From assembly GCA_016906335.1 (NCBI GenBank), contig JADEYG010000003.1, forward strand, positions 1,302,001 through 1,366,000: a stretch of 64,000 bases of DNA, in the 5' to 3' direction. Under the pieces are notes generated by a model. It was not told the DNA's origin. It saw nothing but the letters and a program-made list of their open reading frames with translations, and searched no databases. The translations under genes were made by a program, and so were the position numbers. Shown piece by piece: positions 7,418-64,000 of the stretch (positions are counted from its first letter, which is position 1; each line of letters begins with the position of its first letter). This DNA comes from Novakomyces olei (lineage: Eukaryota).

Positions 7418-10753
<3,336 letters not shown>

Positions 10754-22137: not shown

Positions 22138-23043
22138 TGGTGGTTCACTCAATTGAGGACAAATTAAATGAGCCCCGTAAATGCAAAGCAACAGAGTTGT
22201 TTGAGCTGAGAATGAGTTTGTTGTTGAAAGTCGCACACACAATAGCCGATTGGTTAGCTATTGTGTCACTTTTGAGTTCGCTTGGAGAGTAGCACAGTAT
22301 TAATACTGAGTCTGATTGTGCATGCGTGATTCCAGCGTACGACGTCGTCATTGTCTCCTTACGGATGACATCACACAATGGACTATGTTGACGAGCATCG
22401 GCTATTTTGCTTGTTCCTGCAGCGTATGTAATTAGGAAAACGCGATTTTTAAAGCTATTTTCAAGTATGCAAAGCCAACCATGGGCTTCTATTGAATTTA
22501 GGGAATATTAAAGCGGGGATTGTTAGTATACGTTTGCTTACAAGTCATTTATACGACCAAATGCGTGATTTTTGTTCACCCATATCTTTATCATATGTAG
22601 CGTAGATCAATCAACTGACTGACTCACAGTGGATTCAATAAATGTGATAAATTTAATTTACTGGAGTATATTGCTAGGGGAAAAATTTCAACATTATTGT
22701 GGACGGCACATTATCTCTGCAAGGTTTGTACAACTGCCGAGCTCTTTTTATGCACTTGATGTGATCCTTAGTGTGGGGGACAAACAGTTTCTATACATAA
22801 TTATTATTATCAGACCGCACCTCAAACTACCGCTGCAGATCTCAGTACTACTATAATTTGATGTATTACGTCATATCTACCGTCTATCTTATGACAAAAC
22901 AAAACTTTAATTAAACTTTCTAGTTATTATGCAATCAACTTGTAAGCTGCAATTGTTTTGTACTTTAATTTACGTGGCTCAAGAAAAGAATCTCGTTCTT
23001 TTAATGCCGATAGTACGTTATGCGTTTAAAATTGAATGCCCAT

Positions 23044-29165: not shown

Positions 29166-32100
29166 ATGTCGGCCATGGAGGCAGAAGGGCCAAACGACTT
29201 ACCAGCCGAATCGGTAGACGATTTTGATATAGAACCACCGCAAAATCACGGTAGTTCTCCACCGTTTCGTGAATTGGTTACAACGCTCCTGGAGCCGCTT
29301 GAAAGTCGGCCTTACTCGCGCTTTGGAGGCACTCGCGCGGCAAAAGCCAGCCGTGCGGATGTCATTAACCGCTTTATCAAACGCTGGCGCAAAGATGTTG
29401 GGCCCAACATCTACCCTGCTTTTCGTTTAGGTACAAGTGCTCTTTAAACAACCTGTTAATTTGCTAACAGACTGATGTGTATAGTTATGCCTGATGTAAG
29501 CCACGGATTATATTTGAAATGCCGTTTCTAAATTTGCACAGAAAGATAAAGACCGACCTATGTATGGCATCAAGGAAGCTGTACTAGGCCGAATTCTCAC
29601 AAAGGCAAGCAATCCGTATTTTGTGGTATGCTAATATCATTCAACAGGCTCTGCGAATAAGTCCACAATCGGAAGACGCACAGAATTTGAAGAATTGGAA
29701 GCAGCCTGGGCAGGTAAGTGATGATCACAAAAACAAATTCTGAACTACCTTATCAGTGGCGTATGTTTCTAAGTCATTTGTAGTCTCGCTCAGCGGGAAA
29801 TTTTGCCGGACGAGCTTATGGTAAGATTTTAGAAACAAGACCAGACTACGGAAGCAAGCATGAACGAATTAAAGTCTTCTAATTTCCACCGATAGAGTTG
29901 CTTGAAAAAAGGCCATTGCGTATGGAATGGAGCAATTACACTGTGGATGATATCAATGATATCTTGGACCAAATATCTCAGGCTACTAAAGAGTAAATTA
30001 TTTGTTCAAATAAAAAAAACATATTTTGATTGCTGCAGGGATGCTCAGAGGCCGATTATCGAAAATTTGTATGAAAGCATGTGTCCTATTGAACTCAAGT
30101 GGATCATAAAAATCATCCTTAAATGTATGCTTAAACTATGTTTTGCAGATTCTTGCTAACACAATTATAGCGACGAAAATTGGGGCTACTGAAAAAACAA
30201 TATTAAATTTTTTTCACCCAGATGCGGCAAAACTTTACAATGTATGTTCTTCTCTTAGAAGAGTTTGCTGGGAGCTATACGACCCTAATAAGCGTCTGGA
30301 GAGCGAGCTATCAGATGTTAGACCCTTCCAATGCTTTATACCACAATTTGCGAATTTTAAAAAGCACAAACTTGAGCAGACAATAGCAAAATTCAACGGT
30401 AAACCCTTCTGGATAGAGGAGAAACTTGATGGTGAAAGAATTCAGCTGCACATGGTTAACGGGCAATTTCGCTTCTTTTCGAGACGCGCTACTGATTACA
30501 CGTATCTTTACGGTGAATCATACGATGATGAAACAGGCGCTTTGGCCAAATATTTACGAAATGCCTTTGTTGAGGGTGTAAACGAGGTAATTTTAGACGG
30601 CGAAATGATCACATGGGATCCATTAGAGGAAGCACGAGTACCTTTTGGCAGTCTCAAATCTGCTGCTCTTGGAGAAAAAGAAACGCTTTGGAGCAATACA
30701 AACAATCAACGTCCCTGCTTTATAATGTTTGATATTCTTTACCTCAACGGAACTTCGCTGGTTGATTATACATTACGAGAGCGTCGGAAAGCTCTGCACA
30801 GAATTATTCGGCCGATAGATAAACGTTTTGAAGTGATTCATCATGTTGAAGCAGTTTCCGTCAGGGAAATAGAGACAATGCTTAAAAACGTAGTGGAGGA
30901 GGCTTCTGAAGGCCTCGTGATTAAAGACACAAGCGCTCCTTACTGTGTAAATGAACGCAATGATACTTGGATCAAAGTAAAGCCAGAGTATATGATGGAG
31001 TTTGGAGAGAATCTTGATCTGCTTGTTATCGGCGGTTACTTTGGCAGTGGCCGGAGAGGTGGACGATTGGCCTCCTTTTTGTGTGGGCTTCGTGTAGACG
31101 GAGAAAATGGTGGAAAAAACACAGAACAAATGAAGTTTTATTCATTTTGTAGAGTTGGTGGCGGGTTCAGTGCTGGCAATTACACAGAGATATCTCAAGC
31201 TACTCAAGGCCAATGGCAGCCTTGGGATGCTGTCAGGGCGGGCAAGTATTTTGAGTTTGCAGCCAATTACCGCTGGAAACCGGATCAGTGGATTCAGCCG
31301 GACAAGTCAGTTGTGTTTCAGATTAAAGCAGCACAGCCGATCCCATCTGATCTTTTTCGGACTGGAATAACCCTAAGGTTCCCACGATTTCAGAGGCTTC
31401 GGGAGGACAAGGACTGGACTACTTGTCTGTCAATTCATGGGTTTCATGATCTTCGCTTGGAAGTGGAAAAAGAAGTACAAGAACAGGAACAGGAGCGTCG
31501 AATGACTGTCGAAAGGAAAAGACCCGCAAAACGGATCAAACGTGACTTTAATGTATTAGGCGCTGAATTGAGCTCGCAAAAAGACGATAATAGCAACACT
31601 GAGCAGGGGGCACAGGCACAAAGTCTGATATTTGCAGGGATTAAAGCATGCATTGTTACAGACGCGAGTGATATACATAAAACAAAACAGCAACTCGAAA
31701 CTATTGTAAAGGCAGGTGGTGGAGAGGTCTATCAAAGCCTTGATTCCCAACCTAATATGATCTTGATCGCCACGAAACTTACATTTTCCCTTACTGCGTT
31801 TCTTAAGAAGCATGATCAGTCGGTCATCAGACCACAATGGCTTTTGGCTTGTGTTGCTTCTGGAGAGCTGATGCCGTGCCAGACTCGAGACTTTCTTGAA
31901 ATTTCATCCAGAGATCGAAAACGGCTAAAGAAGGACACAGATCCTTTTGGCGACAGTTACAATGCGAACACGACAGCTGATACTTTAAAGAGGGTATTAG
32001 ATTCAGAGGCGTTTGGCGAAAATTTTGCCAACAGCTCTGTTAATAACGTTGCTTGTAAAATGGAAAAGTTGATGCTTGATGAACCCGAATTTTACGGTTT

Positions 32101-46283: not shown

Positions 46284-47918
46284 GTTCGCGATCTGAATTC
46301 ACCACCCGTGATATTCTTGTGCTATTGGCAACATTTGTTTTACTTAGCTATCTGAATTGTAATTGAATTATTTTAGTATAATATGATATATTGGATGTGC
46401 CAATGGATGTGCCAATGGATATGCCAACAATTTCTAATTTAGCGGACAATAATTAAAACTTCATGATCTTTTTAAACTGCACCGAAGATCTGATGTCGGA
46501 GAGAAGTATAGTCAGCAACAAACGCTAGATATTGAGTTTAAGATAGATCACGCCTACCGTTAAAGAAATCAACAATTCCGGTACCACCTTATTACAATCT
46601 CAGTATTTGCTTGAGCCTTTTGCTACGCTTGAATATTTAATGAGCGCTCACCTTAGTGAGCAATAAATAGGTGCTGATTGACTGTGACAAGTGAGCCGCA
46701 CTGAACAGCCAATCGATAGAGCTTAGACACGATAGAAAAGAACTCATCTACATGGATTAATATGATGACTCACTAATATTCAAGACTGTAATAATATAGA
46801 TAAAATGATGGGTCTTGATGTGGTCGGGTACCTTCCCTGCCAGCCATTGAGCTAGTTATGTATTTTCTACTTGCATCATCAAACAGGGAAACGTCGGAAC
46901 CATGATGCATCTATCGTCCGAGGTTCCCAAAATTAAAAAAAAAGAGGTTTGTCAAAATATAAGTAAGATAAGTCGATCGGGGTTCGAGAAGCATGATGAT
47001 AATATTTTGCCATTGCTCATACTGAGCATCTACAACAATATGACTATGCAAACTGATACGTGCATGTAAGACTGATTCAAGTGGAGCTTTTGTCTTGAAT
47101 TGAATTTCCCACCACATAAGAACAAGTCCATCTCTGTCCTTATTTCGCTCAATCATCACCTCCAGCCGATCGAAAAATCAAATTGTAGCTGCAGTGGCTT
47201 TAAAAAAGTATTTGGTGCCAATAATGTATCTTATCTTATCGCAATCATTTTAATTTTGTATTCATACGTTCTGACCAAAGCAAGCAGAGTTTCGTATTTT
47301 AAGTCGTATTAATATGACAAAATACCTCCGTCTAAATAAGCGATCTCTGAATAAGATAAGCCTTTTGAATTGAGAGCCGATTTGACTATGTGAAGCGAAA
47401 GACTCGAAATGTGCAGCCAATCATGCCAGATGCTTAAGTAATCTTCAAACGAGAAAAGGGATCAGCCAAAAGATTGACTAGATGTTGTACAGCAATTGAC
47501 TTCTGAACTCCACAATACAAACATAGAACTAATTCGTTTATGGTATTGCATGAAGAGAATCAACTACACAAAACTTCCAAATACAGATATCATAATATGA
47601 TTCTAGAAAGAATACGAGCAAGTAATATAATATAACGTCTACACGGAAGAGATATGCAAGGAGAGATACCAATTACTTGAATACAGAACATACGTAACCT
47701 TCATGCTTACACAAATAGCCAACCTAAACGTTCTTGGCTAAACATGGACCAATTTTGTTGATGCTCCACCGTTGGGCTCACAGAAGACCAAACCACACGC
47801 ATGTACAAAACTTGTTTTATAGATGCATTACTCTGTATGATAAAAATCAAGCTTTCAATTACAGTTCTAATTGTGGTGAGTTAGTTGTCGAAAAACGATT
47901 GTCATTTTAGCTTACAAG

Positions 47919-48265
47919 TGTTATAACTGGAAGTAACTCACTGTTATAACTCTTTAGATTAATTGAATCTACTCTTAAACTATGGAAAACCTTGTCCTTT
48001 TATAGACTTCAAGGCTCAGCTCTTATCTCAGAGATAGGATCAAGACTTTCCTATCAATTAGTAATCAGATAGGATCAGAAGTAACCGATCAATTAGTAAT
48101 CACCTTATCATTGATAGGTTACAGATACCCGATCAGTGGCGTGATTTAATGATTAGTAATTAAATATTCCTCCAAATCGGTTAAATTCCGTATTTGGAGT
48201 GAATTAATTTAATTTAATTATGTCATTTTAAATTTAAATTTTACTATCTACACTATGGCCTAACA
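47919..48265 (-). repeat. Element A 3' LTR
   Basis: Direct repeat of 60076-60422; preceded on the minus strand by purine tract GTGGGGGAGGA. Confidence 0.95.
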
Positions 48266-48528
48266 TCCTCCCCCACTAATTCGAGATGTGTCGAATTGTA
48301 GTTGTTCAGCAGGTTGGTTGAGTTAGCCAAGTGAGATTTAGGTTCCCATGTATCGTCTTCAGGTCCATAGCCTTCCCAGCGGATTCGGTATAATAGCTTA
48401 TACCCCTGTTTCGGTGTATTGGATTTTTTAGACCCTTTGAACCATCCATGGTCAACGATTTGTTGGATCAAATATAATTCTGTGTTGTCTTTGTAGCGTC
48501 GCAGAGCTTTAGGCTTAGGTTGTTCTCT
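48253..48528 (-). pseudogene. Element A integrase C-terminal chromodomain, separated by B insertion
   Basis: YRIRWEGYGPEDDTWEP. Removing B plus one TCTCT copy restores the frame (..NTREQPKPK..). Confidence 0.9.
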
Positions 48529-49159
48529 TGTAAGACGGTCCTTACAGCTACAATCGCTGGAGGCCGGCCGTGTATAGTTTAAATAAAGTAAAGGAATAAG
48601 AAAGACCAGGAAAGCAGAAAGCGATTACTGTAAAGCTTACCAGGAGTAATATAATGTATTACTCCCACTTTGAGATAATCAACCCGTGAAGGGCGAGAGG
48701 CCTTCACGGGCAACTATAAACTAAACTAAGTTGCGGAGGAGCGGATGCTCCTTCGCATTCTAAACTACTCTTCCCAAGCTAACTTATGCGAAGGTCGCAC
48801 AAGTTAGAGAGGGAAGCTCTCAGCCTAAACTAGTCTATGGAAATAACTATGAATGTTCTCGCGCTAGCGGAGTGCGAAGGGTCGCACTCGCTAGCGTGCG
48901 AGGATGAGAACGGGAAGCGAGGTCCGTGCACATTGTGCATGGAGCCCCTCGCTCCCGTGGGCCAAGCTGGCTTAGTGCGCGTACCTACATGCACACTAAG
49001 ACAACTTCTACGTCCCAAGACCATCGCGTTACGCGCCGACTGGTCTTGGGCCGCGTTGGCGAAGCTTGCGACGCGCGGACATCCCAAGTCCGACTACAGG
49101 CGTCGCCCCTCGCTTCCCAACGCGGTTGTCAGGAACTCGTCAAGGCGAGGATCATGACA
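48529..49159 (-). repeat. Element B 3' LTR
   Basis: TGTAAG...ATGACA; direct repeat at +6003. Confidence 0.95.
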
Positions 49160-49743
49160 GTATCCCCCCCTCCCTTGGGCGAGGTCCCCGCGCCCGCAAA
49201 ACATAAAATATCCCAAAACAATAGTAAGGCGAAAATAAAAACAACAGACTTCCCAGCTTTCAATATAATAAGGCACTCCAAGCATAAAAAATTGCAACTC
49301 TTCCATAGTCTCGTTCCAATGAAATAGCATGGGTAAATCAACTCAATCAAATAAATGTTCGCATTGCTTTGCGTAAGGAAAGAAAATTCAAATGCGAGCA
49401 CGAACACATGTAGACCATACTGTCTTTCAACTGCGGACCAAGTCGTATCTCTGCTCGGTGTTCTCATTGCTCGTCCGTATAAAGCGTGTATGTCGTGCGA
49501 TAAGATAAATAATAGTCGCGTTCGTTTTGTCAACGCCGTGAATAATTAAAGCGGTGTTAGCTTCAGTTTAATAATTTTTTTTTTGCATGATTTTCAAAAA
49601 CGTTTTTTCCAAATAGCGATAAATAACTAGTGCGAATTGTGTATTATATCGCAGTCGTAAACAAAAATCAAGAGTTGAGTCTCGCGATTGCGTAAGATTA
49701 CGTGAGTTGAATGACGTAACCTGTATCGCGATTAACGTAAACA

Positions 49744-52700
49744 TCATAGCTTCGGCTTAGCCGGGTGTAATCTGTGAAATTCTTTCACTAAATCGTCGCA
49801 ATTTGTCAAATTGCCTGCCGGCTCCCAAGTGCGATTAGCACTATCGTATCCCTTCCAGTGTACGAAGTATTCCAATTTGTTTCTTCGCTTCCTTGAGTCC
49901 AACACTTCCTCTACCTCCCACTCTGGTGTATTCTCAATTATTATTGGTGGTGGTGGTGCTGTCTGCTGTCGCACAATCGTAGACGTAGACTTGTACGATT
50001 CCAATAAAGAAGCATGGAATACTGGGTGTATTCTCATCGTGTTCGGTAAATCCAACTTGTATGCACGTAAACCGATACGTTCCAAGATTGCAAAGGGTCC
50101 AATCTTCCTGTAATCCAACTTGTCGCTTGGCCTAGTGGTACTGATGTTCTTTCTCACTAGCCATACTTTCTGACCGACTTCAAAATTCTTGTCGACACGG
50201 TGCGTATTAGCAAACCGTGCTTGATCGCTAATGGCGTGCTTGATTTCGATCTGTAAAAGGCGATGTAGCGTTCGCAAGAAATCAATCCGATTGTCCGCCG
50301 ATGGACACTGCCGTGCTGTTGCTATCGTAAAACGGCATTTGGGGTGATACCCATATAAAGCGTAACTAGGGGTCGCTTTTATTGATGATTGCTCAGTATT
50401 GTTATATGCGAACTGTGCAAAAGGTAGCAAGTTTACCCAATTCGTTTGTTGGTAATTGCTGTAAATTCTCAAATATTGCTCGAGGCTCTGATTAAGCCTT
50501 TCCGTTGTCCATCGCTCTGGGGATGGTACGCAGTTGATAACCTTTGCTTGATATCACAATGTGCGAGTAAATGCTTTGTAAAATGTGATACGAAAACTGA
50601 TCCACGATCTGAGATAATTTCTTCTGGCAGTCCAAAGTTAGCAAATACTCTGTGAGCGTATAGCAATGCTAGTTCTTTCGCGCTCATGGTCTCGCATATT
50701 GGTACAAAGATGCCTATCTTCGTAAAGCGACATACTATAACCCAAATTGAGTCGTAGTCTTTGCCTGTGATGACATCTCTTGACACCGGGAGCTTCACAA
50801 TGAAGTCCATAGCAATGCTTTCCCAAGGCTTTGTAGGCACTCGCAACGAATGTAGTAGACCATAAGGAGCATGACGCGATGGTTTACTTCGTGCGCAAGT
50901 GTCGCATGAGTCCACATAGTTAAATACGTCCTTCCGCATCCTAGGCCAGTAGTAATTTCGTGTCACAAGCTCTAGCGTCTTAGCCTGTCCGGGGTGACCT
51001 GAAGTCTGCGAATCATGACATTCTTGCATGATTGATAATCGCAAATCGTTGTCTCTGGGTATGTAAATCAAACCCGAGAACATTAACAGACCTTCCTTGT
51101 CTATTGTATAGTTCTCCAAATGAGCAGCACGAGGCTTGCTCTTTAACTCCTCAATAATATTTTTGCAAATGCTGTCCTTCTCGTAGCATTTCTTAATATC
51201 CTGTGCCAGCGTTTTGTTGTCCTCAATCGCAAACACAAATTGCGATTTGTCCAAAAGCACCATTGTTCGTTCTGGCTTTTCCTCCTCTTCGCTGCTAACG
51301 TAATCGCTTCTTCGCGATAAGGAGTCAGCCTTGTGGTTAAACTTTCCCGCACGATACACGATCACAAAATCGTAAGACGCAAGTAACTGCGACCAGCGCA
51401 TTTGCCGTCTATTCAGGACACGCGCGGTCCAAAAGTACACAAGATTGCGATGATCCGTGTATATCGTGGTTTTGTGAAGGGGACTCTCCAAGTATACCCT
51501 CCATTCCCGAAGACATACAACAATAGCTAATAGCTCCTTGTCGTGAATGTCGTAGTTCGTCTCTGCGCTTGTCATCTTGCGCGAGTAAAATGCGATTGGT
51601 CTCGTGTCGCCGTTTTCATCCTTTTGCGAAAGGATCCCGCCTATCGCAAAATCTGAGGCGTCCGTTTCCAAGAAGCTCGGCTTTTGTGGATCAAAGTGCA
51701 CAAGAATAGGTGCGCCTAAGAATGCATCCTTCAACGCATTGAATGACTCCCTGCATTCGTCGCTAAACACGAACTTTGTATCCTTCTTTAAAAGCCGGGT
51801 AAGAGGTACCGTAATCTTGCTGTAGTTGGCGATGAATCTTCGGTAATAGTTCGCCAGTCCCAGGAACGACATAACCTCCTTAACATTCTTTGGCTCGGGC
51901 CATGTTTCAATCGATTTGACCTTCGTATTTTCCATCGACACACCTTTCGTTGAAATCACGAAGCCAAGAAACTCCGTTGTGTCGGTATGGAATTCGCATT
52001 TCTCCAATTTGACAAATAAATTTGCCTTGCGAAGTCTCTCCAATACTCCGCGCACGTGCTCCACGTGTTCTTCCTCTGTATTTGAGTAAATCAGTATATC
52101 GTCCAAGTAAACGACAACATATCGATCCAGGCAATCTCGCAAAGTGTCGTTGGCGAGTGCTTGAAACGAAGCCGGGGCATTCGTAAGCCCAAACGGCATG
52201 ACTTGGTACTCGTAGTGGCCGTACCTCGTACGAAAGGCCGTTTTCCATTCGTCGCCTTTTCGTATCCTAACCAAATTATATGCACCGCGAAGATCCAATC
52301 GCGTAAAAATAGTTGCTTGGCGAATGCGATCTAGAAGTTCGGATATAAGCGGTAATGCATATCTGTTTTTGACAGTGATTGCGTTCAGACCGCGATAGTC
52401 AACGCATAATCTAAGCGATCCATCTTTCTTTTTGACAAATAAGATCGGCGCCCCCGCGGGCGACGACGACGGTCGTATAAAACCTTTAGCGAGGTTTTCC
52501 TTGATATAATCTCTCAGCGTTTGCAATTCGCGTTCGGCGAGCGGGTAGATCGGACCAAAAGGCGGCTTTGCATTTTCGGCCAAGGGTATCGCATGATCCC
52601 AAGGTTGATGTTTCGGCAAAACGTCCGCGTTCTTCTTCTCAAATAGGTCGCGATATCCCTCGTAGAACCCAGGCAATGTAACTCGAGGCTTGATATCTTG

Positions 52701-53290
52701 CTCGTCCGTTGCGTACACACATAAAATACCTGATTCTCCATTACGAGCCAATCTTGCAAATTCGGTTGCGCTGACTTGCATGGATTCGGATAATGTACTG
52801 CACTTCAAACAGTTCGCCAACAGTAGTTCGACTTAAACTCGACGTTTGCGCGACTCCATCCGATCGTAGGCTCATGCTTGTCCAACCATGGCTTGCCCAA
52901 GATAGCATCGTATCCACGAAGAGGTATGACATTGAAGGTCATCCTTTCTCGATGTTCGCCAATTGATATATCCATCTCGCTGGTGTGAAAGCGAATACCT
53001 CCTGACTTGATTGTCCTTCCATCAACGACTCTGATGGGCTCGGTCTCGCTCTTCTCCGTAAGCTTAATAAAAGCATGCGATGCGAGTTTCTCGCTGATAA
53101 AATTAGAGGTAGCTCCTGAGTCAATCAGGGCTCTCGCGTTCAACTCTCCATCCTCTGTCTTGACTTTCACGACGACAGTCAGATGCTTTGCTTTGTCCGG
53201 TTCCGTAAAAACTGTCATAACTTCTGGTGGCCTAAATTGTTGTTTGCCCAGATCAGGCCTTTTCATTGGACCTGGGCGTTCGCTTTTCCC
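49744..53290 (-). CDS. Element B Pol (PR-RT-RH-IN-chromodomain), -1 frameshift from gag; two 1-bp deletions (~52820, ~50503)
   Basis: ALIDSGAT, LCVDYRGLN, MPFGLTNAP, YLDDI, TDAS, HHCC, SDRG, GPF and chromodomain YFVHWKGYDSANRTWEP. Confidence 0.92.
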
Positions 53291-54195
53291 AAATCGGAAA
53301 ATTCGTGCGTGAATGCAGCGACGTGTTGCTGATTGTACGTCTTCTTCTTCTGCTTGCATTCTTTTGCTCGATGACCCACGCGTCCACAGTTAAAGCATTT
53401 GATGTTGCTTTTGCGATGGTTGTTATCCTCCTTTTCCAAACTAATCGCGTCCACATCCATAGGAGTAAAACTTGTACTCGCGTTTGCAGCCGGGCGGTTG
53501 TTGGAATATTTCACGGAACCGCGGCTTGCACTCTCGATGTGCCTGTCGGATATTCTTCCATCCACGCGAACTGAAATCTCAATCATTTCATTCAAAGTGC
53601 GGGGTCTGTCCATCCTGGAAAGCTCATCCTTGATGCGATCCTTCAGCCCCTGATAATACATGAACGTCAGCGCACTGTCATTGAAATCCAAATACGAAGC
53701 AATTCTTTGAAAAATGCTCGCATAAGATGCTGCTGATCCACGTTGTCTCAAGGCGGCTAACTCTCTTTGCGCCTGACTCACCCTGTCGACTTTGCCGAAA
53801 TTCGCGGCCAACGCTTCGCAAAAGGCTTCAAAAGTAGGTACTACCGAAGCAAAGTCGTTGTTGCGAAGGTGTGGTTCGAACCACGCAAATGCGGCGTCCC
53901 GCAAATACGAAGCTGCGAACAAAACCTTCGAACGCTCGTCGCGAAACTCGTGCGGTTTCAACATGATGTAAAGGCGAAGCTGCGCCAAAAAATTCTCGAC
54001 CATTCTGCGGTCCCCACGAAACGCGTCGGGCTTCATCACCGCTGGTCCGTCACTCGTCGGAGCTCTCTTAGCTCGCGAACCGATCTCCTGGGTCAGATGC
54101 GCAATGTGCGATCGCCCTTTCTCGTTCTCTGCCTTCAACTCGGCAATCTGAGTTTGCAGGGATTGCAAAAAGGTGTTGAGTTCCTCTTGCGACAT
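53263..54195 (-). CDS. Element B Gag
   Basis: Retrotrans_gag-like motifs (KVLFAASYLRDAAFAWF, LRQRGSAASY, YYQGLKD) and CCHC CFNCGRVGHRAKEC. Confidence 0.93.
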   Translation of the reverse strand: MSQEELNTFLQSLQTQIAELKAENEKGRSHIAHLTQEIGSRAKRAPTSDGPAVMKPDAFRGDRRMVENFLAQLRLYIMLKPHEFRDERSKVLFAASYLRDAAFAWFEPHLRNNDFASVVPTFEAFCEALAANFGKVDRVSQAQRELAALRQRGSAASYASIFQRIASYLDFNDSALTFMYYQGLKDRIKDELSRMDRPRTLNEMIEISVRVDGRISDRHIESASRGSVKYSNNRPAANASTSFTPMDVDAISLEKEDNNHRKSNIKCFNCGRVGHRAKECKQKKKTYNQQHVAAFTHEFSDLGKANAQVQ

Positions 54196-54531
54196 CTTGT
54201 CCCTCGTACCGCAAAACTCGTAATCGTAATCGTTCTTCCAGAACCGTTCTTCGTAAATTGTTCACTCAATCGTCGACTATCCAAGCCGATACTCAATAAC
54301 TCAAAATAACTGTGTTTCACCGGAACACTCGATAACTCAAAATTCTCAAACTCGAATCCACGTCCTTCACTCGACGCTTTAACCGTTTTAACTTCCGTAA
54401 AAATCCGTAAAAATAAGTACCGAACCGCGTCTTTGACTCGACGTCCGAAACTCTCTCGAATCCGAAGGAAATAAAACACAAACAATTCCAAAAAACTTCA
54501 AACTTCAACGACCGGGACGGGTTGATTATAG

Positions 54532-55162
54532 TGTAAGACGGTCCTTACAGCTACAATCGCTGGAGGCCGGCCGTGTATAGTTTAAATAAAGTAAAGGAAT
54601 AAGAAAGACCAGGAAAGCAGAAAGCGATTACTGTAAAGCTTACCAGGAGTAATATAATGTATTACTCCCACTTTGAGATAATCAACCCGTGAAGGGCGAG
54701 AGGCCTTCACGGGCAACTATAAACTAAACTAAGTTGCGGAGGAGCGGATGCTCCTTCGCATTCTAAACTACTCTTCCCAAGCTAACTTATGCGAAGGTCG
54801 CACAAGTTAGAGAGGGAAGCTCTCAGCCTAAACTAGTCTATGGAAATAACTATGAATGTTCTCGCGCTAGCGGAGTGCGAAGGGTCGCACTCGCTAGCGT
54901 GCGAGGATGAGAACGGGAAGCGAGGTCCGTGCACATTGTGCATGGAGCCCCTCGCTCCCGTGGGCCAAGCTGGCTTAGTGCGCGTACCTACATGCACACT
55001 AAGACAACTTCTACGTCCCAAGACCATCGCGTTACGCGCCGACTGGTCTTGGGCCGCGTTGGCGAAGCTTGCGACGCGCGGACATCCCAAGTCCGACTAC
55101 AGGCGTCGCCCCTCGCTTCCCAACGCGGTTGTCAGGAACTCGTCAAGGCGAGGATCATGACA
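54532..55162 (-). repeat. Element B 5' LTR
   Basis: Direct repeat of 48529-49159. Confidence 0.95.
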
Positions 55163-55262
55163 CGAAGCTTGCGACGCGCGGACATCCCAAGTCCGACTAC
55201 AGGCGTCGCCCCTCGCTTCCCAACGCGGTTGTCAGGAACTCGTCAAGGCGAGGATCATGACA

Positions 55263-56584
55263 TCTCTGGTGTTGTGACTGTTCATTGGATGATGTTTCTT
55301 TAATTGAGAAATGTGAACAACGGGATGATATTTTATTGATGTTGGTAGTTCCAATTCATATGAAACAGGACTGATTTTTTGAATAATTTTGAATGGACCA
55401 ATGTATTTTAATTGTAATTTTCGTGTGAGAACATCGTGGAATAGCTCCGGTATTTCTCGTATGTTGGCTGTGCTTAAATAAGCCAGGTCATTAACATTAT
55501 ATTCAACATTTATTCGCTTTTTATCCGCATAGATTTTTGATAAATCATGTGCTGTTCTGATAGCATCTTGACAAAGAATTTTGTTGGCCTCCAGAGTGTT
55601 TATAAAAGAGGAAGTATCTTTGTTCGGTGTTTCGGGCATTGATAAGTCAGTAAGACTACGTGGAATGTAGCCAAGATCCGCCTCAAAGGGTGTCATTGAT
55701 ATGGCGGAGTGTTGGCTTGAAGAGTAAAAGAATTCGGCAAACGATAATAATGTGTGCCAGCTGAAGTTCTTTTTATTGGCATAAATGAAAAGACGAAGAT
55801 AGTCTTCCAATACACGATTTGTGCGTTCGGTTTGACCGTTGGACTGTGGGTGATAGCTTGATGATGGCTTCAAATTGATTTGAAGAGTTTTTGTAAGTGT
55901 CTGCCAAAATTCAGACATAAATCTTACATCTCTGTCACTTATTATTGCAGTTGGTAAGCCGTGTAGACAGAAATATCTTTCCAAAAATAGCTGTGCAGTT
56001 CCTTGTGCTGTTATAGTTGTGTGCGTGGGCCAGAAATGAGCTCTTTTGGTTAGACGATCAACTATGCAAATTATAGCATCAAACTTTCGAGTCCCCGAAG
56101 CTGGTAGTCCAGTGATAAAGTCCATGCCTATTGTTTGCCATCGATTACTCGGTATATCGAGTTCTTGCAATAGTCCCATTGGCTTTTGAGGTATTATTTT
56201 GCTTTTAGCGCACGTTTCACATGATCTGACATATTCATTTATTTCTTTTGCCATGCCTGGCCAGTAGTATTTGCGGCCTACGCCTGCTATTGTTTTCTTT
56301 ATACCTCCATGCCCTCCTTGGTAGGTGTCATGTGATTCTCTTATTATGATGTTTGTGAAATCTGTTGGTAGGCAGATTCGATCATCGTATTGGAGATGTA
56401 TTATACCGTCTTGGATGTAGTAGCGCGATTTGATTTTTACGCTTTCGTTGTCTGTGAAACTGTCTGGATTTTTCAAAATAGTGAGTATTTTGGACCAATG
56501 TCTGTCCTTTTCGTAGGCCAACTCAAATTTTAAATTATTCTGGGGCGAAATTTGTACGGAAATTGCACCTACATCAGATGTTTT
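55263..56584 (-). pseudogene. Element A integrase, in frame with pol after a single TGA, cut by element B
   Basis: HHCC (H..GGH...C..C), MDFITGLP, SDRD, HPQSNGQTER, GPF motif. Confidence 0.9.
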
Positions 56585-59278
56585 TCAGGGTGTTCTTGAA
56601 AGTAGATCCGCCAAGACATTTTCAGTTCCGGGAACATGAATAATATTTATATCGAACTCATTTAAAAAATCCATCCATCTAAGGTGTCTTCGTGAAAGCA
56701 TAACATTTTTAGAGTAAAGGAGGCGACTCAGAGCTTGGTTGTCTGTCAAACAATTGACTTGGTAACCTCGAGCATATATTTCAAAATGATCAAGAGCTCG
56801 TATGCATGCAAGATATTCAAGTTCATGTACAGGATAATGTGATTCAGCTATCCCTAATTTTTTCGACGTGAAGCCTATTACTCTGCATTTTCTCCAGTCT
56901 TGTCCTTGTCCTAGCCATCCACCTGTACCAACTAGTGAAGCATCTATTCCCATGAATAGCTTTTCTGTACCATTATTCAGGGGTTCAGGGTCAAACGGTG
57001 AAAGTACTATGTCGTGCTGAACTGCTTTCTTGATTTTATCAAAGCCTTTTTGTTTTGTTTCGTCCCAAGAAAAGTCCTTCATCTCAGTGAATGTTGAAAT
57101 GTGAGAGGATAAGTTTGGTATAAACGTTGAAACCCAATTCAGCATTCCAACTAATCTTTGTACTTGCTTAATATTCTTTGGTGGTTCCAGTCGCAATATG
57201 GAGTTTTTTGATTTATCAGTCATTTTGATTCCTTCATCACTGATTTGTCGTCCCAGCACAACAAAGTTCTTGCAAAACGGAAATGTTTTGGTTGGACTCG
57301 CGTATAGTTCCCACTTTGACATAATACAAAAAACTAGCACCAAATGGTCCAAATGTGCTTGGACATCATCGTCGTATATTATTATGTCATCGACATAGAC
57401 TGTCATCCATATTCCAATGTAAGGTCTGAAGAGCTCCTCCATAAGTTGTTGCTGTATAGCAGTGGAATTACGATCTCCTTGAGGCATGACGTTCCACTGA
57501 TATATCCCAAATGGTGTCCAGAATGCCGTGTAGTGTTCTTGTCCGGGTTGTATTCTTGATTGAAAGAAAGCGTCCTTCAAATCAATCTTAGTTCTGTATT
57601 TTGCTCGTGCAATGTCTTGTACAACTATGTCAATACGTGGTACTTGAATGTAGAAACGCTTCATGTTTGCATTGCGAGGTCGAGCATCATTAACAAATCT
57701 CAAATATTTAATTATTTCTTTAGGATCTGTTAGCTTGTTAACCATTTCTTTGTCTTTGGGAATAGGAAACAGTATTGCACTAGGTTCTTCGCTAGAGATT
57801 GAGATCATCTTTGCTTTTAATAGCTCATCAATCTTTACTTTCAGAGGCAACATAAGCTTTTTGCTTGGGTACCACTTTTTTATGTTATACCTTTTTTCTG
57901 GATCAATTGGCTCATATGTAGCAACCACAGGTCTCATTATAGGCAACTTGCTTGGAGGATCCTTGATCAAAGTTTGATCAAACTTGTCTTGAAGTATCTG
58001 CAGTACTTTTTCTGGGTCAACCAAGTCCTCATTTGTAACTTGTTGGACTTCAATTCTCTTGTTGTCATCGATTGTTATTGAGCTGACTACAGGAAGTACT
58101 TCTGGCTTGACAAACCTTCTTTCATTTGCATCTTCCTGCCATTGTATATGTCGTTTGCGAGTGTTCACAATTGCCCCAAGCTTACTCAGTGTTCCCATGC
58201 CAATCAATAGATCAGAAGTTCTGAGTCTTGCAACGGCGCAATTTAACTCGCTGCCTTTGAACATGACTTTGGCCATATATCTGCTCACAGTTTTCGATCC
58301 TTGAAAGGCCATTTGAATTTTGTGGTCACTTTCTTTGTATGTTGGTCGGTGAACATTGCAAAAGTTTGAGTCAATAACATCAATATCACTTCCAGTATCA
58401 ATCAGGACCTGACATTTGATTTCTTTATCATTTATTTCCACAGGTAGATTTACTAGAAATTGTTGGTTTGTGTTTTGGACAGCAGAACAATTGTAATCAA
58501 GTTTGATTTCTTTGCTAACTATTTCAGAATCATCTTTAAGAGCACTGATGGTTGATTGATTCTTTCGTTTAAAGCACTGCTCGTACGTGTGCCCAGTGCG
58601 GCGACAAAAGGTACATCTTGTTCTGAGGGCTGGCTTCTCTGGTTCTTTCTTCTCAGAAGTAGTTGCCTTTGCTTCAGTTTGTTGGTTGCCTTGTTTAGGA
58701 TTCATGCTCCCTATGTATGGTCTTGTTGCAGTAAAATCGTAGCCTGTTGCCACATCAACCACACTTTGCCATTTCCATTTCGTCATTCCTGTGTTGTTTC
58801 CCGACTGATTTCCAAATGCGCTTCTCAAAGATCCCATTATTTGAGGCTTTGTTCTCTCATTTAGCCCATGTATGAATTGTTGAATTAAGATGGCTTCGTT
58901 AACTATTTCTAGTTCCATTGATTTCAATTTAAGCTGCGTGGCATATTGGCTAATGCTTTTTGTTCCTTGAGCGAAGGTAACAAACTTGCTGTAAGCGCGT
59001 GGTAAATAGTCGTTGGGTACAATGCTTCGCTCCAGATGATCAAGCATCTGATCTGTCGTTACACTAGCATTGTCCCTGAGTTCTTCAGCATAGATTGTAG
59101 CGTTCGATTCGAGGAACATGCTAATTAAGTCTATATCTGAAATCCCGGTAACACTGCCTCCTGCTTTGGCATATGTCAGCCATTTAACCACAGAGCTTCT
59201 CCATGATTGGAACTCTCTATGGGTCATTGAATGACCATTCAGCTTTGCTGGTTCAGGCAGCTTGATTTTGAAGTCCAT
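56585..59278 (-). CDS. Element A Gag-PR-RT-RNaseH polyprotein (single frame)
   Basis: CCHC knuckle CTFCRRTGHTYEQC, LIDTGS protease, YVDDI RT, IDAS/ELE/TDN/DLLSR RNase H. Confidence 0.93.
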   Translation of the reverse strand: MDFKIKLPEPAKLNGHSMTHREFQSWRSSVVKWLTYAKAGGSVTGISDIDLISMFLESNATIYAEELRDNASVTTDQMLDHLERSIVPNDYLPRAYSKFVTFAQGTKSISQYATQLKLKSMELEIVNEAILIQQFIHGLNERTKPQIMGSLRSAFGNQSGNNTGMTKWKWQSVVDVATGYDFTATRPYIGSMNPKQGNQQTEAKATTSEKKEPEKPALRTRCTFCRRTGHTYEQCFKRKNQSTISALKDDSEIVSKEIKLDYNCSAVQNTNQQFLVNLPVEINDKEIKCQVLIDTGSDIDVIDSNFCNVHRPTYKESDHKIQMAFQGSKTVSRYMAKVMFKGSELNCAVARLRTSDLLIGMGTLSKLGAIVNTRKRHIQWQEDANERRFVKPEVLPVVSSITIDDNKRIEVQQVTNEDLVDPEKVLQILQDKFDQTLIKDPPSKLPIMRPVVATYEPIDPEKRYNIKKWYPSKKLMLPLKVKIDELLKAKMISISSEEPSAILFPIPKDKEMVNKLTDPKEIIKYLRFVNDARPRNANMKRFYIQVPRIDIVVQDIARAKYRTKIDLKDAFFQSRIQPGQEHYTAFWTPFGIYQWNVMPQGDRNSTAIQQQLMEELFRPYIGIWMTVYVDDIIIYDDDVQAHLDHLVLVFCIMSKWELYASPTKTFPFCKNFVVLGRQISDEGIKMTDKSKNSILRLEPPKNIKQVQRLVGMLNWVSTFIPNLSSHISTFTEMKDFSWDETKQKGFDKIKKAVQHDIVLSPFDPEPLNNGTEKLFMGIDASLVGTGGWLGQGQDWRKCRVIGFTSKKLGIAESHYPVHELEYLACIRALDHFEIYARGYQVNCLTDNQALSRLLYSKNVMLSRRHLRWMDFLNEFDINIIHVPGTENVLADLLSRTP

Positions 59279-59345
59279 ATTTAAAATATATTTTAATCAA
59301 TTTAAATTAAATTGATACAGAATTAAATATATTAAATATAAAAGA

Positions 59346-60099
59346 CTAATACAAAGTATTAAAAAACGCTGGTGATTGCTGTCCACTTTTCAAGTGCTCG
59401 TAGTAATCCTTCTCAACTTTGTTTGGATCTTCTCCTCTGTAAAGACGAATTTTGAATCTGTCCTCAACAATGTTGTCCAGAAGATATTTTGTTTTCTTCC
59501 TGTTGTGCAGTTCTTGAATGCGATTGGCCACCAATTTGTTGTATGTTTCCTCGTAGCGTAGATTTGCCGCCGCTTTGCTTGTCCAGTGCGCTTGTTTTCG
59601 AAAAACTTCTTCCTCTGATAGAGGCAAGCGAGGAGTTGTAGCAGAAATAGTGGCCAGAGAAACTGAAGGAACTGTGGGAGCTGGGTAAGGACCAAGTCTC
59701 TGCGCTGGTGGAGGAGGTTTTCTGAGCACCTTTGCCGCAATAGCAGCAATTGACTCAGGCTCCTTGGAAATTCGACCGTTGCGTTTACGCTCTTTGAATG
59801 CCTGCGATCGGCGAGCGTTTCTTTCTTTCCTCTTATTCAATTGATGAATAGAGGTATTTTTCTCTGAATGGGCACTCTGGTCGGTAAGTCCAGACACAGA
59901 GGTTTTATCCTTATCCTTGGGTGTATTGCTTCGGCGGATAGAGCCAGCCGAGACAACAACCTTTGGATCGGTTTTTGCCTGCTTCAAGAGATTTGCAAAT
60001 GTCTCAGAGTAGACAATGCGAGGCCGTCGGCTGTCTCCTGACGGATTCACTGACAATGTTAGCAGTGAAAAAAGTTGTTATAACTGGAAGTAACTCACT
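59346..60099 (-). CDS. Element A accessory ORF0 (234 aa; ATG formed by splicing intron 60098-60050)
   Basis: Met-free open frame 60056-59346. Donor GTGAGT at 60098, branch TGCTAAC, acceptor CAG ending at 60050. The junction A|TG gives MNPSGDSRR in frame. Confidence 0.7.
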
Positions 60100-60422
60100 G
60101 TTATAACTCTTTAGATTAATTGAATCTACTCTTAAACTATGGAAAACCTTGTCCTTTTATAGACTTCAAGGCTCAGCTCTTATCTCAGAGATAGGATCAA
60201 GACTTTCCTATCAATTAGTAATCAGATAGGATCAGAAGTAACCGATCAATTAGTAATCACCTTATCATTGATAGGTTACAGATACCCGATCAGTGGCGTG
60301 ATTTAATGATTAGTAATTAAATATTCCTCCAAATCGGTTAAATTCCGTATTTGGAGTGAATTAATTTAATTTAATTATGTCATTTTAAATTTAAATTTTA
60401 CTATCTACACTATGGCCTAACA
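60076..60422 (-). repeat. Element A 5' LTR
   Basis: Direct repeat of 47919-48265; TATAAAAG on the minus strand at ~60154-60161. Confidence 0.95.
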
Positions 60423-60689
60423 ACAAGTGTAGAAATTTAATTTGGCTTGTTGTAGAGAATAGTGTTGTATCTCCTTTTAGCTACTTTTCTAAGTCTACTG
60501 ACGCTGTACTATATAGTTTCTTTGGTTCCAGCCACCGAGTTACACTTTGGTAGCGCAAGCCTCTTTGTACTCAGTTCCAGCCACTCCAGCCACTCCAGCC
60601 ACTCCAGCCACTCCAGCCACTCCTCCTCTTTTCTGTAGCCAGCCTTCCTGTTCTTTTTCTGTGACGTCCAAGCTTGACATATTCCTATA
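60423..60689 (-). repeat. Probable copia C 3' LTR (5' part; remainder at ~47838-47913 beyond element A)
   Basis: Starts TATAGGAATA right after the PPT; contains five GGAGTGGCT 9-mers and a TATA-like CTATATAG. No second copy in the window. Confidence 0.55.
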
Positions 60690-62472
60690 CTCCCTCTCAA
60701 GCTTGTTGTCGTCACTTTCACGTGTTTCGCCTTTAAGTATCTTTTGTTGTAGGTAGTTAAATATTTTTTTTGCACAAGGGCTTTGTAAGTATATCCGCCA
60801 CTTGTTCTTTTGTGGAAACATAGTCCATAATAATTCTGCCCTTCTCAGTAAGGTCCCGTAAAAACATGAAGCGCACATCCAGGTGTTTTAAGCGTCTCAT
60901 AGGGCTCGCTTTGTGTGATACGTAAATTGCGCTGTTATTGTCCGAGCACACTCTTAGGGGGTGGTCCAGGTTAAGTATTTTTTTGACCAGATTTTTTATT
61001 CCCAGTCCCGTTACAATTGCAGAGCACGCACTGACATATTCTGCTTCGCATGTTGATAATGCAATAATTTTTTGTTTTGAGGAACTCCAGTGAATTAGCG
61101 ATGTTCCTAAAAACATTGCCATTCCTGATGTGGAGTGTCTGTCAGATGCTTCGCTAGCGTAATCGGCGTCACAGTAAATCGTAAGGGTGCAAGGGACAGT
61201 GTTGCTTTGGTATTCGATTCCAAGTTCCTTCGTGTCTCTTAAGTAAGTTGTAATTTGTTTAATTAGTTCCAGACATTCGGTAGTTGGGTTTTCTTGAAAT
61301 CTTGCAGCGTGGGATACGGCAAATGCTATGTCTGGTCTTGTGCATCTGCTTATCCATAGTAGCATTCCAACGCATTTTCGGTATTCCGTCTGCTCAATCG
61401 GTTTTCCATTTAACACAACGTAATTTTTAATTGGCGTCTTTTTTCTTGGTGTATCTTGACAGTTAATTTCTTTTACTGCCTTTGAAATGGCAGCTTTTTG
61501 GGTAATTTTCATGTTGCCGATTTTTCTGTCATAACTGAATTCCATACCAAGGAATTGGTGAATTTGTCCAAGGTCATTAATTTTAAAAGCCTGCCCGAGT
61601 TTTGTTTTCGTGTTATCGATTTCGTACATTTCTTCACCAATAATAATTATATCGTCAACATAAATTAACAAAAACGAATTTCGTTTTGCATTGTGTAAAA
61701 TGCAGTTTTCTGTTGTGGATTCCAAAAATCCTAAAGCTGATAATGTTGTAAATAATTTTTTGTACCAGCATCTCGGGGCCTGCTTTAGTCCATAAAGTGA
61801 CCGTAGTAGTTTGCAAACTCTTCCGGTTCCATCATCAAAGCCTTCGGGCTGTCTCATAAAGACACATTCTTCCAGGTCTCCATTTAGAAACGCCGTTGTT
61901 ACGTCCATTTGATGGATATGCCATTTCTTTGAAACGGCAAAGGCAAGAAGTGTGCGTAGTGATTCAAGGGCCATAGTTGGTGCGTAAGTTGCCTGATAAT
62001 CAATACCCTCGCGTTGCGAAAATCCCTTTGCAACCAGCCTTGCTCTATATCGTTCAACTTCTCCTTGATTATTGGCTTTCGCTTTAAAAACCCACCGGTT
62101 TCCAATTATATCAGCTCCCTCTGGAGCATGTACCAATTTCCACGCATTGTTTTCCTTCATTGCATTTAATTCAGTCTCCATAGCCTCTTCCCATTCCCGA
62201 GCGTGCAAACTGTTGCGCGCCTGCTTTGTATTGTTTGGCTCTATAATTTCATTTATTGCCACATGCGCTCTATCATAAATTCCTGGAGCATGACGAATTC
62301 TGGTTGAGCGTCTGATTCCGTCGTTTGAAATGGTTGTTCCTAATTCTTGTGTATCATTCTGCTGCTGTGTTTCGTGATTGTCCTGATTTTCGTCCTCTAG
62401 TATATCGTCATTAACATTAATTGAGTCAGTCGTGTCTTGAAAAAATTGCTCCGAGTCTTTTGACGTGCCATC
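60690..62472 (-). mobile_element. Element C: Ty1/copia RT-RNaseH 3' portion, truncated by element D
   Basis: RYRARLVAKGFSQREGIDY, HQMDVTTAFLNG, SLYGLKQAPR, YVDD, YCDAD, STCEAEY, ADILTKP; PPT GAGAGGGAG at 60698-60690. Confidence 0.93.
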
Positions 62473-64000
62473 TGATGAGGTGATACATTCTATACATCGG
62501 AACAAAGTTTTGAAGATACTCTAGAAAATATGTGTCATATCAATATGACATAATTCCGTTTTCATCGGAGATAATCCGTTCGATTGCGGATTATTTCCAA
62601 TTCCGGAATTTTAGTTAGCCACTTTGTGGCTTAGACAGTCTTTTCCGTAGTTGTTTCTATTTTTAGTTATAGTTAGTTAGTTCCAGCAAGGATAAAAGGA
62701 GGCCCGTTCGCACTTTTATCCGACGCTGATTATCGACCGTGTTGACCGTGTAAACCGTTTTAAGTACTATTACCTTCCATTTGGCTTCCCACCACAGTTG
62801 CCGTGAAAGCAACACAGCCGTACCCAAACCAAACAAAGAAAAACACAACAGTATAATCAGCCCACGTTGTGGTGCCGAGCCGTTCGTCATGGAAGGTGTC
62901 GACATGAATCGTCTGAACCAATTTGTTGAGGAAACAACAGCGAAGTTACAGCTACTGGAGCATGAGAACATGATGCTGAAGGTCAAATTGGAAAACGATC
63001 AGGAGAGTCGACATGCGACGTTCAACCGGGAGCCCAAGTTAGCCCCGCCACCTTTGTTTTTTGGCGAGAGAGCTAAGGCTCGTGAATTTATCACCCAAGT
63101 GAAAATGATAACCGACGCACTACCCTCGAGATACGGATCGGACCGCCAGAAGGTCACGTTTGCAGCAACCTATTTGCGAGGAACCGCGTTCAGGTGGATT
63201 GAGCCTCACATCCTAGGGGAAAACGAAGGAATACTCAACGATTTTGAGACGTTTTGTGATTCATTCCTACAGATGTTTGGTGATCGAGATATTAGAAAGC
63301 AGGCGCAGAAGCAAATTCGCAATCTGAAGCAGTCTGGAGCTGTTGCTCAGTACGCAGCCGAGTTTGACAGACTCAGAGCGAACTTTAGCTGGAACGAAGA
63401 AGCGTTGATTTCGCAGTACTACGAGGGCCTTAGCGACAGGCTTAAGGACGAATTGGCAAGAACGACAGAGCCTAGTACCTTGCGAGAGATGATCGAGATG
63501 ACGATCAGTATTGATAATCGTCTATTTGAGAGACGTAAAGAGAGACAGAGAACAAGTTACGAACCGAGAACGTATTATGAGCCGAGATTTACGGGCAGAA
63601 GTAACCAGACGACTGCACCGATGGAAATTGATTTGGCGGTTGCCGGTGCCAGAGGAGCAGGCAGACCCGCAAGAGAGTACAAGACGAATGACAGAGAGCA
63701 CAAGACGAATTACAGAGACGCGAGAGACGCGAGAGAAAGAGAGAGAAGTCACGACAACAGAAACGTACAGTGTTATAATTGCCAGAAGAAAGGGCATATT
63801 GCAAAAGAGTGCAAAGAAAAGAGAATTCCGTTTGTAAGCCGTCAAGCTGCAATGACGACGAACGATTTGAGCGACGACTCGGGAAAAGATTTCGCCTAGA
63901 GAAAGAAGTGGTTTCTCTAGGACAAGCTGAATTAAAAGCCACTGAAAGACGACGAGATACTGGAGTGAGACATTTGGAGACGGACGTCCAAATAAATGGG
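62473..64000 (+). mobile_element. Element D: Ty3/gypsy retrotransposon 5' part (LTR ~62473-62850, gag, start of pol)
   Basis: LTR ends CAACA at 62850, followed by a PBS complementary to an LTR-internal 9-mer; gag and a frameshift signal follow. The LTR left edge is uncertain. Confidence 0.85.
62889..63899 (+). CDS. Element D Gag
   Basis: KVTFAATYLRGTAFRW, LKQSGAVAQY, YYEGLSD, APMEID, CYNCQKKGHIAKEC. Confidence 0.92.
   Translation: MEGVDMNRLNQFVEETTAKLQLLEHENMMLKVKLENDQESRHATFNREPKLAPPPLFFGERAKAREFITQVKMITDALPSRYGSDRQKVTFAATYLRGTAFRWIEPHILGENEGILNDFETFCDSFLQMFGDRDIRKQAQKQIRNLKQSGAVAQYAAEFDRLRANFSWNEEALISQYYEGLSDRLKDELARTTEPSTLREMIEMTISIDNRLFERRKERQRTSYEPRTYYEPRFTGRSNQTTAPMEIDLAVAGARGAGRPAREYKTNDREHKTNYRDARDARERERSHDNRNVQCYNCQKKGHIAKECKEKRIPFVSRQAAMTTNDLSDDSGKDFA

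Follow-up and report, generated by a model that had tools for sequence, protein, structure and literature searches.

A candidate intron across the LTR end may supply the start codon of an ATG-free leader frame in a Ty3/gypsy chromovirus of Novakomyces olei

How could an open reading frame (ORF) be expressed that contains no methionine codon and lies in a leader in which no reading frame offers an ATG? This question is raised by a long terminal repeat (LTR) retrotransposon, here referred to as element A, on the minus strand of a 64,000-nucleotide (nt) stretch of the Novakomyces olei genome (contig JADEYG010000003.1, positions 1,302,001 to 1,366,000). The whole stretch is called the window in the following, and all coordinates refer to it (Table 1). 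Between the 5' LTR and gag of element A lies a long open frame without methionine, ORF0. In the usual view, a single unspliced RNA serves LTR retrotransposons for the production of both gag and pol, and accessory genes and spliced subgenomic RNAs count as refinements of retroviruses; to our knowledge only few retrotransposon cases have been described, among them the CERV of Cer1, the env of errantiviruses, and Ogre. An earlier note on this DNA had suggested that in element A splicing of a short intron across the end of the LTR creates the missing start codon and parts a replicable RNA from a messenger for ORF0.

The leader of element A is exceptional in its lack of start codons. Since the minus strand is free of ATG from 60267 to 59279, the gag ATG is the first AUG on an unspliced RNA, and the resulting ATG-to-ATG distance of 990 nt is the longest among 1983 such gaps when the two strands of the window are combined, with 687 and 566 nt in second and third place. 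Shuffled versions of the 874-nt leader contained 9.8 ± 2.5 ATGs with a minimum of 2, and none of 2000 was ATG-free like the observed sequence. ORF0 has no ATG in 699 nt, compared with densities of 18–27 per kb in the gag-pol and integrase ORFs of element A and in the gag and pol ORFs of element B, a second gypsy element nested in element A, and with ~15.5 per kb in the window. The Met-free frame between the 5' LTR and gag extends over 243 codons from 60077 to a TAG at 59348-59346, its tenth codon being GTG (60050-60048). In dinucleotide shuffles of the same leader the longest open frame had a mean of 79 and a maximum of 224 codons (0/3000 reached 243). The codon-position composition of ORF0 resembles that of gag-pol, with a purine-rich first and an A-rich, G-poor second position, and the frame reads as coding. 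We read the ATG-free leader as the product of selection that lets ribosomes scanning the full-length RNA arrive at gag, which explains why ORF0 is devoid of methionine. The leader also speaks against the recent capture of a host fragment, because such a fragment would carry ATGs in all frames. Given the ATG-free leader, ORF0 very likely depends on an unconventional start.

A start of this kind would be provided by splicing. The earlier note had claimed a 49-nt intron with consensus donor, branch point and acceptor, and all of these, including the length, are present on the minus strand at the positions it gave. Position 60076 is the end of the LTR, as indicated by the exact identity of 347 nt between the two LTRs and by CTTGT on both sides, and the candidate intron therefore comprises the last 23 nt of the LTR together with the next 26 nt. 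The putative upstream exon ends in ...AGTTATAACA at 60099. Removal of 60098-60050 would join A60099 to T60049, and the resulting ATG lies in the ORF0 frame and is followed by 233 codons; reading of the frame from 60077 to 59346 bears out the claim that A and TG together would form the start codon of an otherwise Met-free ORF of 234 amino acids. The AUG at the junction would have the context AAC-AUG-A, with A at position -3. The branch point A lies 9 nt from the acceptor, whose CAG is the first AG after the branch point, and further CAGs follow downstream at 60040-60038 and 60033-60031. The run of T upstream of the branch point agrees with the pattern of fungal introns. The consensus quality of these signals can be read directly off the DNA, as can the anatomy of the element, the ATG-free leader and the improbable length of ORF0.

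Host genes in the window contain introns with which the candidate can be compared. The DNA ligase IV gene on the plus strand carries an intron of 46 nt (30125-30170) with the structure GTATGC...TGCTAAC-N10-AG, and a PAK-type kinase gene, also on the plus strand, carries two longer ones at about 9908-10063 (~155 nt, GTGAGT) and 10163-10343 (~181 nt, GTAAGT). Their branch sites (CTAAC in the ligase IV intron, then CTTAC and CTAAT in the kinase introns) are located 9–12 nt before the acceptor. These host introns were placed by eye from protein continuity and conserved motifs. The claim that the candidate falls into the host size range is substantiated by the ligase IV intron, which has the same TGCTAAC-N10-AG build, and judging by its signals the candidate would fit the short-intron type of the host.

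The pattern GTRAGT..CTAAC..YAG within 90 nt occurs three times on both strands of the window (128 kb), namely in the candidate intron, at the same donor in the 3' LTR with signals supplied by chance in the flank, and in a likely host intron at 2608-2562. Among 20000 dinucleotide shuffles of 60152-59988, which preserve neither the open frame nor the ATG-free state, an intron of strict consensus appeared in 106 and one that also produced an in-frame ATG in 2. With relaxed signals these numbers rose to 929 and 17, and with any GT..YAG to 19995 and 2032, respectively.

An explanation of ORF0 that does without splicing is suggested by rice tungro bacilliform virus (RTBV), a pararetrovirus of plants. 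In RTBV the unspliced RNA carries an AUU start for ORF I, ORFs I and II form a stretch of ~900 nt without internal AUG, and P4 is made from a spliced RNA (PMC5902531). Element A shares with RTBV a long AUG-free ORF ahead of the main polyprotein ORF and an upstream ORF without AUG start, but differs in having a consensus intron that offers a real AUG. By analogy, unspliced RNA might yield the ORF0 product if a few ribosomes initiate at a near-cognate codon (for example CUG 60065, UUG 60056 or GUG 60050) and most scan on to the gag AUG; the intron-like signals would then have arisen by coincidence or have a different role. A long ORF inside 990 nt without ATG matches the hallmark described for RTBV ORFs I and II (PMC5902531), the in-frame near-cognate codons lie within the first 10 codons of the open frame, and this frame reaches 9 codons upstream of the proposed AUG; a non-AUG start would explain the ATG-free leader as well as splicing does. 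However, position -3 is T in the case of both CTG and GTG, and TTG, although preceded by A at -3, is followed by T at +4; a purine at -3 together with G at +4 occurs at none of the three. This poor context lowers the probability of such a start, although context is a weak criterion and does not decide the matter. The RTBV-like explanation also leaves donor, T-tract, branch point, acceptor and in-frame ATG as a coincidence of the order found in the shuffles (2/20000 strict, 17/20000 relaxed). We regard it as possible, though on the doubtful side. The splice-switch interpretation of the earlier note is thus supported in part: the anatomy, the signal statistics and the ATG-free leader fit a splice-made AUG, but the leader fits an RTBV-like non-AUG start equally well.

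With rather more belief than doubt we favor such a splice switch, in which unspliced RNA would be genome and gag-pol mRNA and spliced RNA would be a non-replicable mRNA for ORF0. The leader, from inside U3 to the gag ATG, would be kept ATG-free in all frames, and ribosomes scanning the unspliced RNA would reach gag first, the full-length molecule serving both as genome and for gag-pol translation. A fraction of the transcripts that start upstream of 60099 would lose the host-type 49-nt intron (60098-60050), and the joining of A to TG would create the only AUG ahead of gag, in the ORF0 frame and with A at -3, by which the spliced RNA would become the ORF0 mRNA. As the splice would remove the last 23 nt of U5 and the primer position, this RNA would not be copied into integration-competent cDNA. 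Transcription start, splicing, translation of ORF0 and the function of its protein are the parts of this account that we infer.

Reverse transcription requires a primer that anneals within a few bases of the LTR end, and the primer site of element A therefore lies inside the candidate intron. The claim that splicing abolishes reverse transcription of the RNA holds as logic, since a primer site has to lie directly next to the end of the LTR (60076). Of the related claim that the intron contains the end of U5 and the position of the primer-binding site (PBS), the part concerning the final 23 LTR nucleotides and the position next to the LTR stands, but a PBS sequence is not recognizable there. 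A tRNA PBS seemed unlikely, as no TGG occurs within 46 nt of the LTR end and no tRNA gene in the 64-kb window, and a complement of at least 9 nt was found nowhere in element A. In Tf1, the transcript start is complementary over 11 nt to a PBS abutting the 5' LTR. Self-priming of this type was rejected: the sole complement in the LTR of element A, CAGTGA (60100-60095) to TCACTG (60068-60063), amounts to 6 nt plus one G-U pair and lies 7 nt past the LTR end, and the 7 nt left by such a primer should belong to the LTR, in conflict with its boundary. With its unrecognizable PBS element A resembles SM-Tcn1, a Tcn1-like chromovirus without recognizable tRNA or self-primer PBS and with a conserved T-rich stretch just after the 5' LTR (PMC2864245). 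T6-CACTG (60073-60063) is the exact 11-nt complement of CAGUGA followed by A's, the sequence with which the element RNA would end if the poly(A) site lay directly after 60095. By analogy with Rev or CERV, a two-way switch is conceivable in which the ORF0 protein would in turn control how the unspliced genome is spliced or exported and, more speculatively, the polyadenylated 3' end of the element itself would act as minus-strand primer; we consider this unlikely.

The motifs at the intron borders may also have a structural role. One copy of CAGTGA lies at the donor (60100-60095) and another at the acceptor (60052-60047), both being complementary to TCACTG at 60068-60063, and AGTTATAACA is duplicated (60108-60099 and 60085-60076). 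The intron region is predicted to fold into three hairpins (z -2.9; 0/200 shuffles fold as well), of which the first is formed by AGAUU...AAUCU, the second by two palindromic GUUAUAAC copies, whose loop contains the donor, and the third by pairing of UUCACUG with CAGUGAA, which puts the acceptor into the stem and the branch point into the loop. Such hairpins could act as a brake on splicing, or the motifs could owe their existence to them. Alternatively, ORF0 might be unexpressed, or a decaying or co-opted remnant, while GTGAGT, TCACTG and CAGTGA would be parts of hairpins around U5 and the PBS that serve the priming of reverse transcription or packaging, and transcription may start at or after the ‘donor’. 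This explanation would accommodate the folding of the region, which surpasses all 200 shuffles, as well as the CAGTGA-TCACTG-CAGTGA layout and the AGTTATAACA duplication, which look structural or related to priming. It is also in keeping with the lack of an ORF0 homolog among 1.84 billion representatives, with an in-frame TGA before the integrase, by which this copy need not be fully functional, and with the unusual priming reported for fungal-type chromoviruses of the Tf1/Tcn1 groups (PMC6317226, PMC2864245). It is opposed by the 243-codon frame (0/3000 shuffles) and the absence of ATG in all frames, which point to long-term selection on a coding leader instead of noise or a recent capture, and by the failure and boundary conflict of Tf1-type self-priming. 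We consider a remnant or purely structural origin of these features quite unlikely.

Several points weigh against the splice switch, one of them being the properties that the intron shuffles do not preserve. The upstream exon is assumed, and it would be as short as ~30 nt if transcription starts ~30 nt after the putative TATA box. The splice signals are optimal, not weak, and without some restraint on splicing the element would therefore run short of genomic RNA. If the CAGTGA repeat is kept for an RNA structure used in reverse transcription, the A/TG property follows automatically and the chance estimate (2/20000) is too generous. The analysis covered one copy of element A, and within the 64-kb window only its two LTRs represent the family. 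Finally, mapping of three RNA sequencing (RNA-seq) runs from 2026 (~11–12 million reads each) on 55300-61000 yielded 2, 0 and 3 reads and 1 contig; all of these are 18–19-nt partial LTR matches that run into unlike sequence, with no depth on ORF0, gag or pol, and have no bearing on expression or splicing. The runs were chosen by species label, and element A is either silent in these samples or absent from them.

The deduced ORF0 product has a pI of 10.2, 46 Lys and Arg among 233 residues, and no Cys. An AlphaFold2 single-sequence model of low confidence (mean pLDDT 59, pTM 0.23) consists mostly of long helices, with one helix over a basic cluster and a long C-terminal helix; the product is basic and largely helical or disordered. 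A likeness of the basic cluster to the basic region of bZIP proteins, noticed by eye, found no support in Pfam and was dismissed. A nucleic-acid-binding or regulatory role, suggested by the same cluster, is only a guess. Homologs of ORF0 were found neither in Pfam, a word-index protein search at near lengths, or the ESM Atlas, nor by phmmer among 1.84 billion representatives, nor in viral contigs or prokaryote genome contigs, and no paralog occurs within the 64-kb window, so that ORF0 appears to be an orphan in these searches. For the gag part of element A, the protein search returned no matches, and no gag-pol relatives were detected in viral contigs. The reverse transcriptase (RT)-RNaseH region matched 53 proteins at E ≤ 1e-10, mostly with ~25–35% identity, apart from one short match with 45% identity at 25% coverage. 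The named matches among the highest-scoring of these proteins are basidiomycete, and the closest pol relatives are only ~33–35% identical. Two metagenome loci (L001 and L002) were discarded as relatives, being degenerate, without long ORFs, and 33% identical over 95 residues.

Element A is a complete chromovirus, i.e., a Ty3/gypsy element with an integrase chromodomain, as demonstrated by its LTRs, the order gag-protease-RT-RNaseH-integrase and the chromodomain. The Pfam domains follow each other as Retrotrans_gag, gag-asp_proteas, RVT_1, RT_RNaseH, Integrase_H2C2, rve and SH3_Tf2-1, the gag-asp_proteas and rve matches being below the Pfam cut-offs, and the chromodomain (PF00385) was detected with E 1.5e-10 and 41.3 bits against a cut-off of 25.1. 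Its identical LTRs, the target site duplication (TSD), the full set of Pfam domains, the chromodomain and the polypurine tract show element A to be both complete and a recent, young insertion. The integrase frame resumes after the nested element B and continues into the chromodomain, and the TGA at 56587-56585 is all that separates the RNase H ORF from the integrase ORF, which share one frame. This in-frame TGA (...ADLLSRTP, then stop) occurs in a copy with identical LTRs, and may reflect programmed readthrough or a defective copy mobilized in trans. The AT-rich spacer between ORF0 and gag (59279-59345) might contain an early poly(A) signal that ends a short ORF0 mRNA, or simply provide an unstructured approach to the gag AUG. 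Such an early signal has reportedly been located between the small ORFs of the Drosophila 412 element.

Table 1. Coordinates of the features of element A and of the nested element B in the window (all on the minus strand).
Feature	Position	Strand	Remarks
TSD CTTGT, 5' side of element A	60423..60427	-	read from sequence
5' LTR of element A, 347 nt, TGTTA...TAACA	60076..60422	-	exact identity with 48265-47919
ATG-free stretch in all three frames, 990 nt ATG-to-ATG	59279..60267	-	ends at gag ATG 59278
TATAAAAG, putative TATA box in LTR, 62 nt upstream of exon end	60154..60161	-	promoter function inferred
Candidate spliceosomal intron, 49 nt	60050..60098	-	donor, T-rich tract, branch point and acceptor signals
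Donor GTGAGT	60098-60093	-	
Position where PBS must lie (AC TTTTTT CACTG CTAAC...)	60056..60075	-	without recognizable tRNA or self-primer complement
T-rich tract (T6)	60073-60068	-	
Branch point TGCTAAC	60064-60058	-	
Acceptor CAG	60052-60050	-	followed by TG (60049-60048), then AAT CCG...
ORF0: TG of split start codon, 233 codons and TAG	59346..60049	-	basic, no Met, no Cys, orphan
Very AT-rich spacer, 67 nt, from ORF0 stop to gag ATG	59279..59345	-	
gag-protease-RT-RNaseH ORF, 897 codons	56585..59278	-	ATG at 59278, in-frame TGA end at 56587-56585
Integrase (zinc finger, core, SH3_Tf2-1)	55263..56584	-	same frame as gag-protease-RT-RNaseH ORF, split by element B
Gypsy element B, nested in integrase of element A	48529..55262	-	TSD AGAGA
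Integrase C-terminal end and chromodomain of element A	48259..48528	-	PF00385
Polypurine tract AGTGGGGGAGGA	48266..48277	-	adjoins 3' LTR; read from sequence
3' LTR of element A	47919..48265	-	347 nt, 100% identical to 5' LTR
TSD CTTGT, 3' side of element A	47914..47918	-	read from sequence

Element B has a leader that is likewise free of ATG over 566 nt (54196-54760, minus strand), up to the first gag ATG at 54195, and ATG-free leaders thus seem to be the rule for the gypsy elements in the window. Its LTRs are identical over 631 nt, the 5' LTR carrying one extra tandem copy of its first 100 nt (55262-55163), and gag, protease and pol are encoded in three overlapping ORFs. The surroundings of element A form a transposon cluster, with a copia-type RVT_2 ORF (60757-62520, minus strand) and another gypsy gag with a zinc knuckle (62754-63899, plus strand) just upstream. 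Elsewhere in the window, three tandem 81-nt repeats (21275-21517; 63–73% identity to the first) are located inside an open frame of 416 codons (21007-22257, minus strand).

Parts of the proposed arrangement have counterparts in other retroelements. In foamy viruses, the major splice donor is located inside the R region of the LTR, upstream of the PBS (PMC5035957). Element A would resemble them in having a donor in the 5' LTR, a spliced RNA that loses the PBS and serves other genes, and an unspliced RNA that is genome and gag mRNA, but differs in that its intron is host-like and only 49 nt long, its additional ORF lies upstream of gag instead of downstream of pol, and its start codon would be split across the junction. 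Members of the Drosophila MDG1 group possess two ORFs, sORF1 and sORF2, between the 5' LTR and gag, in sense orientation and dependent on the LTR promoter, and the wider homolog search in the respective paper was limited to canonical start codons (bioRxiv 10.1101/2025.03.14.642691). Both systems are Ty3/gypsy elements in which accessory ORFs precede gag and follow the 5' LTR. The MDG1 ORFs are small, whereas ORF0 has 233 codons and no ATG and belongs to a fungal-type chromovirus, and a split start codon is not mentioned in the accessible text on MDG1. In Cer1 of Caenorhabditis elegans, the lineage-specific accessory protein CERV is made from a spliced mRNA and regulates the fate and export of the unspliced genomic RNA (PMC10309623). 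CERV is a plausible model for the function of ORF0, but a sequence relation was not found (no phmmer matches). In the plant Ty3/gypsy element Ogre, a spliceosomal intron is removed from part of the transcripts and sets the ratio of the products (PMC6317226); this intron joins gag-protease to RT-RNaseH-integrase and, unlike the candidate of element A, neither spans U5 and the PBS nor makes a start codon.

Additional ORFs as such have been recorded as well. The legend of Figure 3 in PMC2864245 mentions fungal elements with an ‘additional ORF of unknown function’, and these gypsy families may bear on the novelty of ORF0. Spliced env-like messages are mentioned in a review of additional ORFs in plant elements (PMC7264820). 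A retrotransposon with a splice-assembled or split start codon of a leader ORF was not found in a literature search that had most subscription journals outside its reach. The novelty suggested in the earlier note for fungal chromoviruses needs to be narrowed: LTR donors upstream of the PBS (foamy viruses) and ORFs upstream of gag (MDG1) are known, and what looks new is that they are combined with a split start codon.

If the splice is real, element A would represent a compact new way to part genome RNA from messenger RNA, in which a leader purged of ATG gains its start codon through splicing alone, and ORF finders that require an ATG would systematically miss such genes. The unrecognizable PBS of element A touches on the unsolved priming of reverse transcription in Tcn1-like chromoviruses. 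However ORF0 is started, a coding leader of 990 nt without ATG is a clean signature, easy to search for, by which upstream genes hidden in other retroelements could be recognized.

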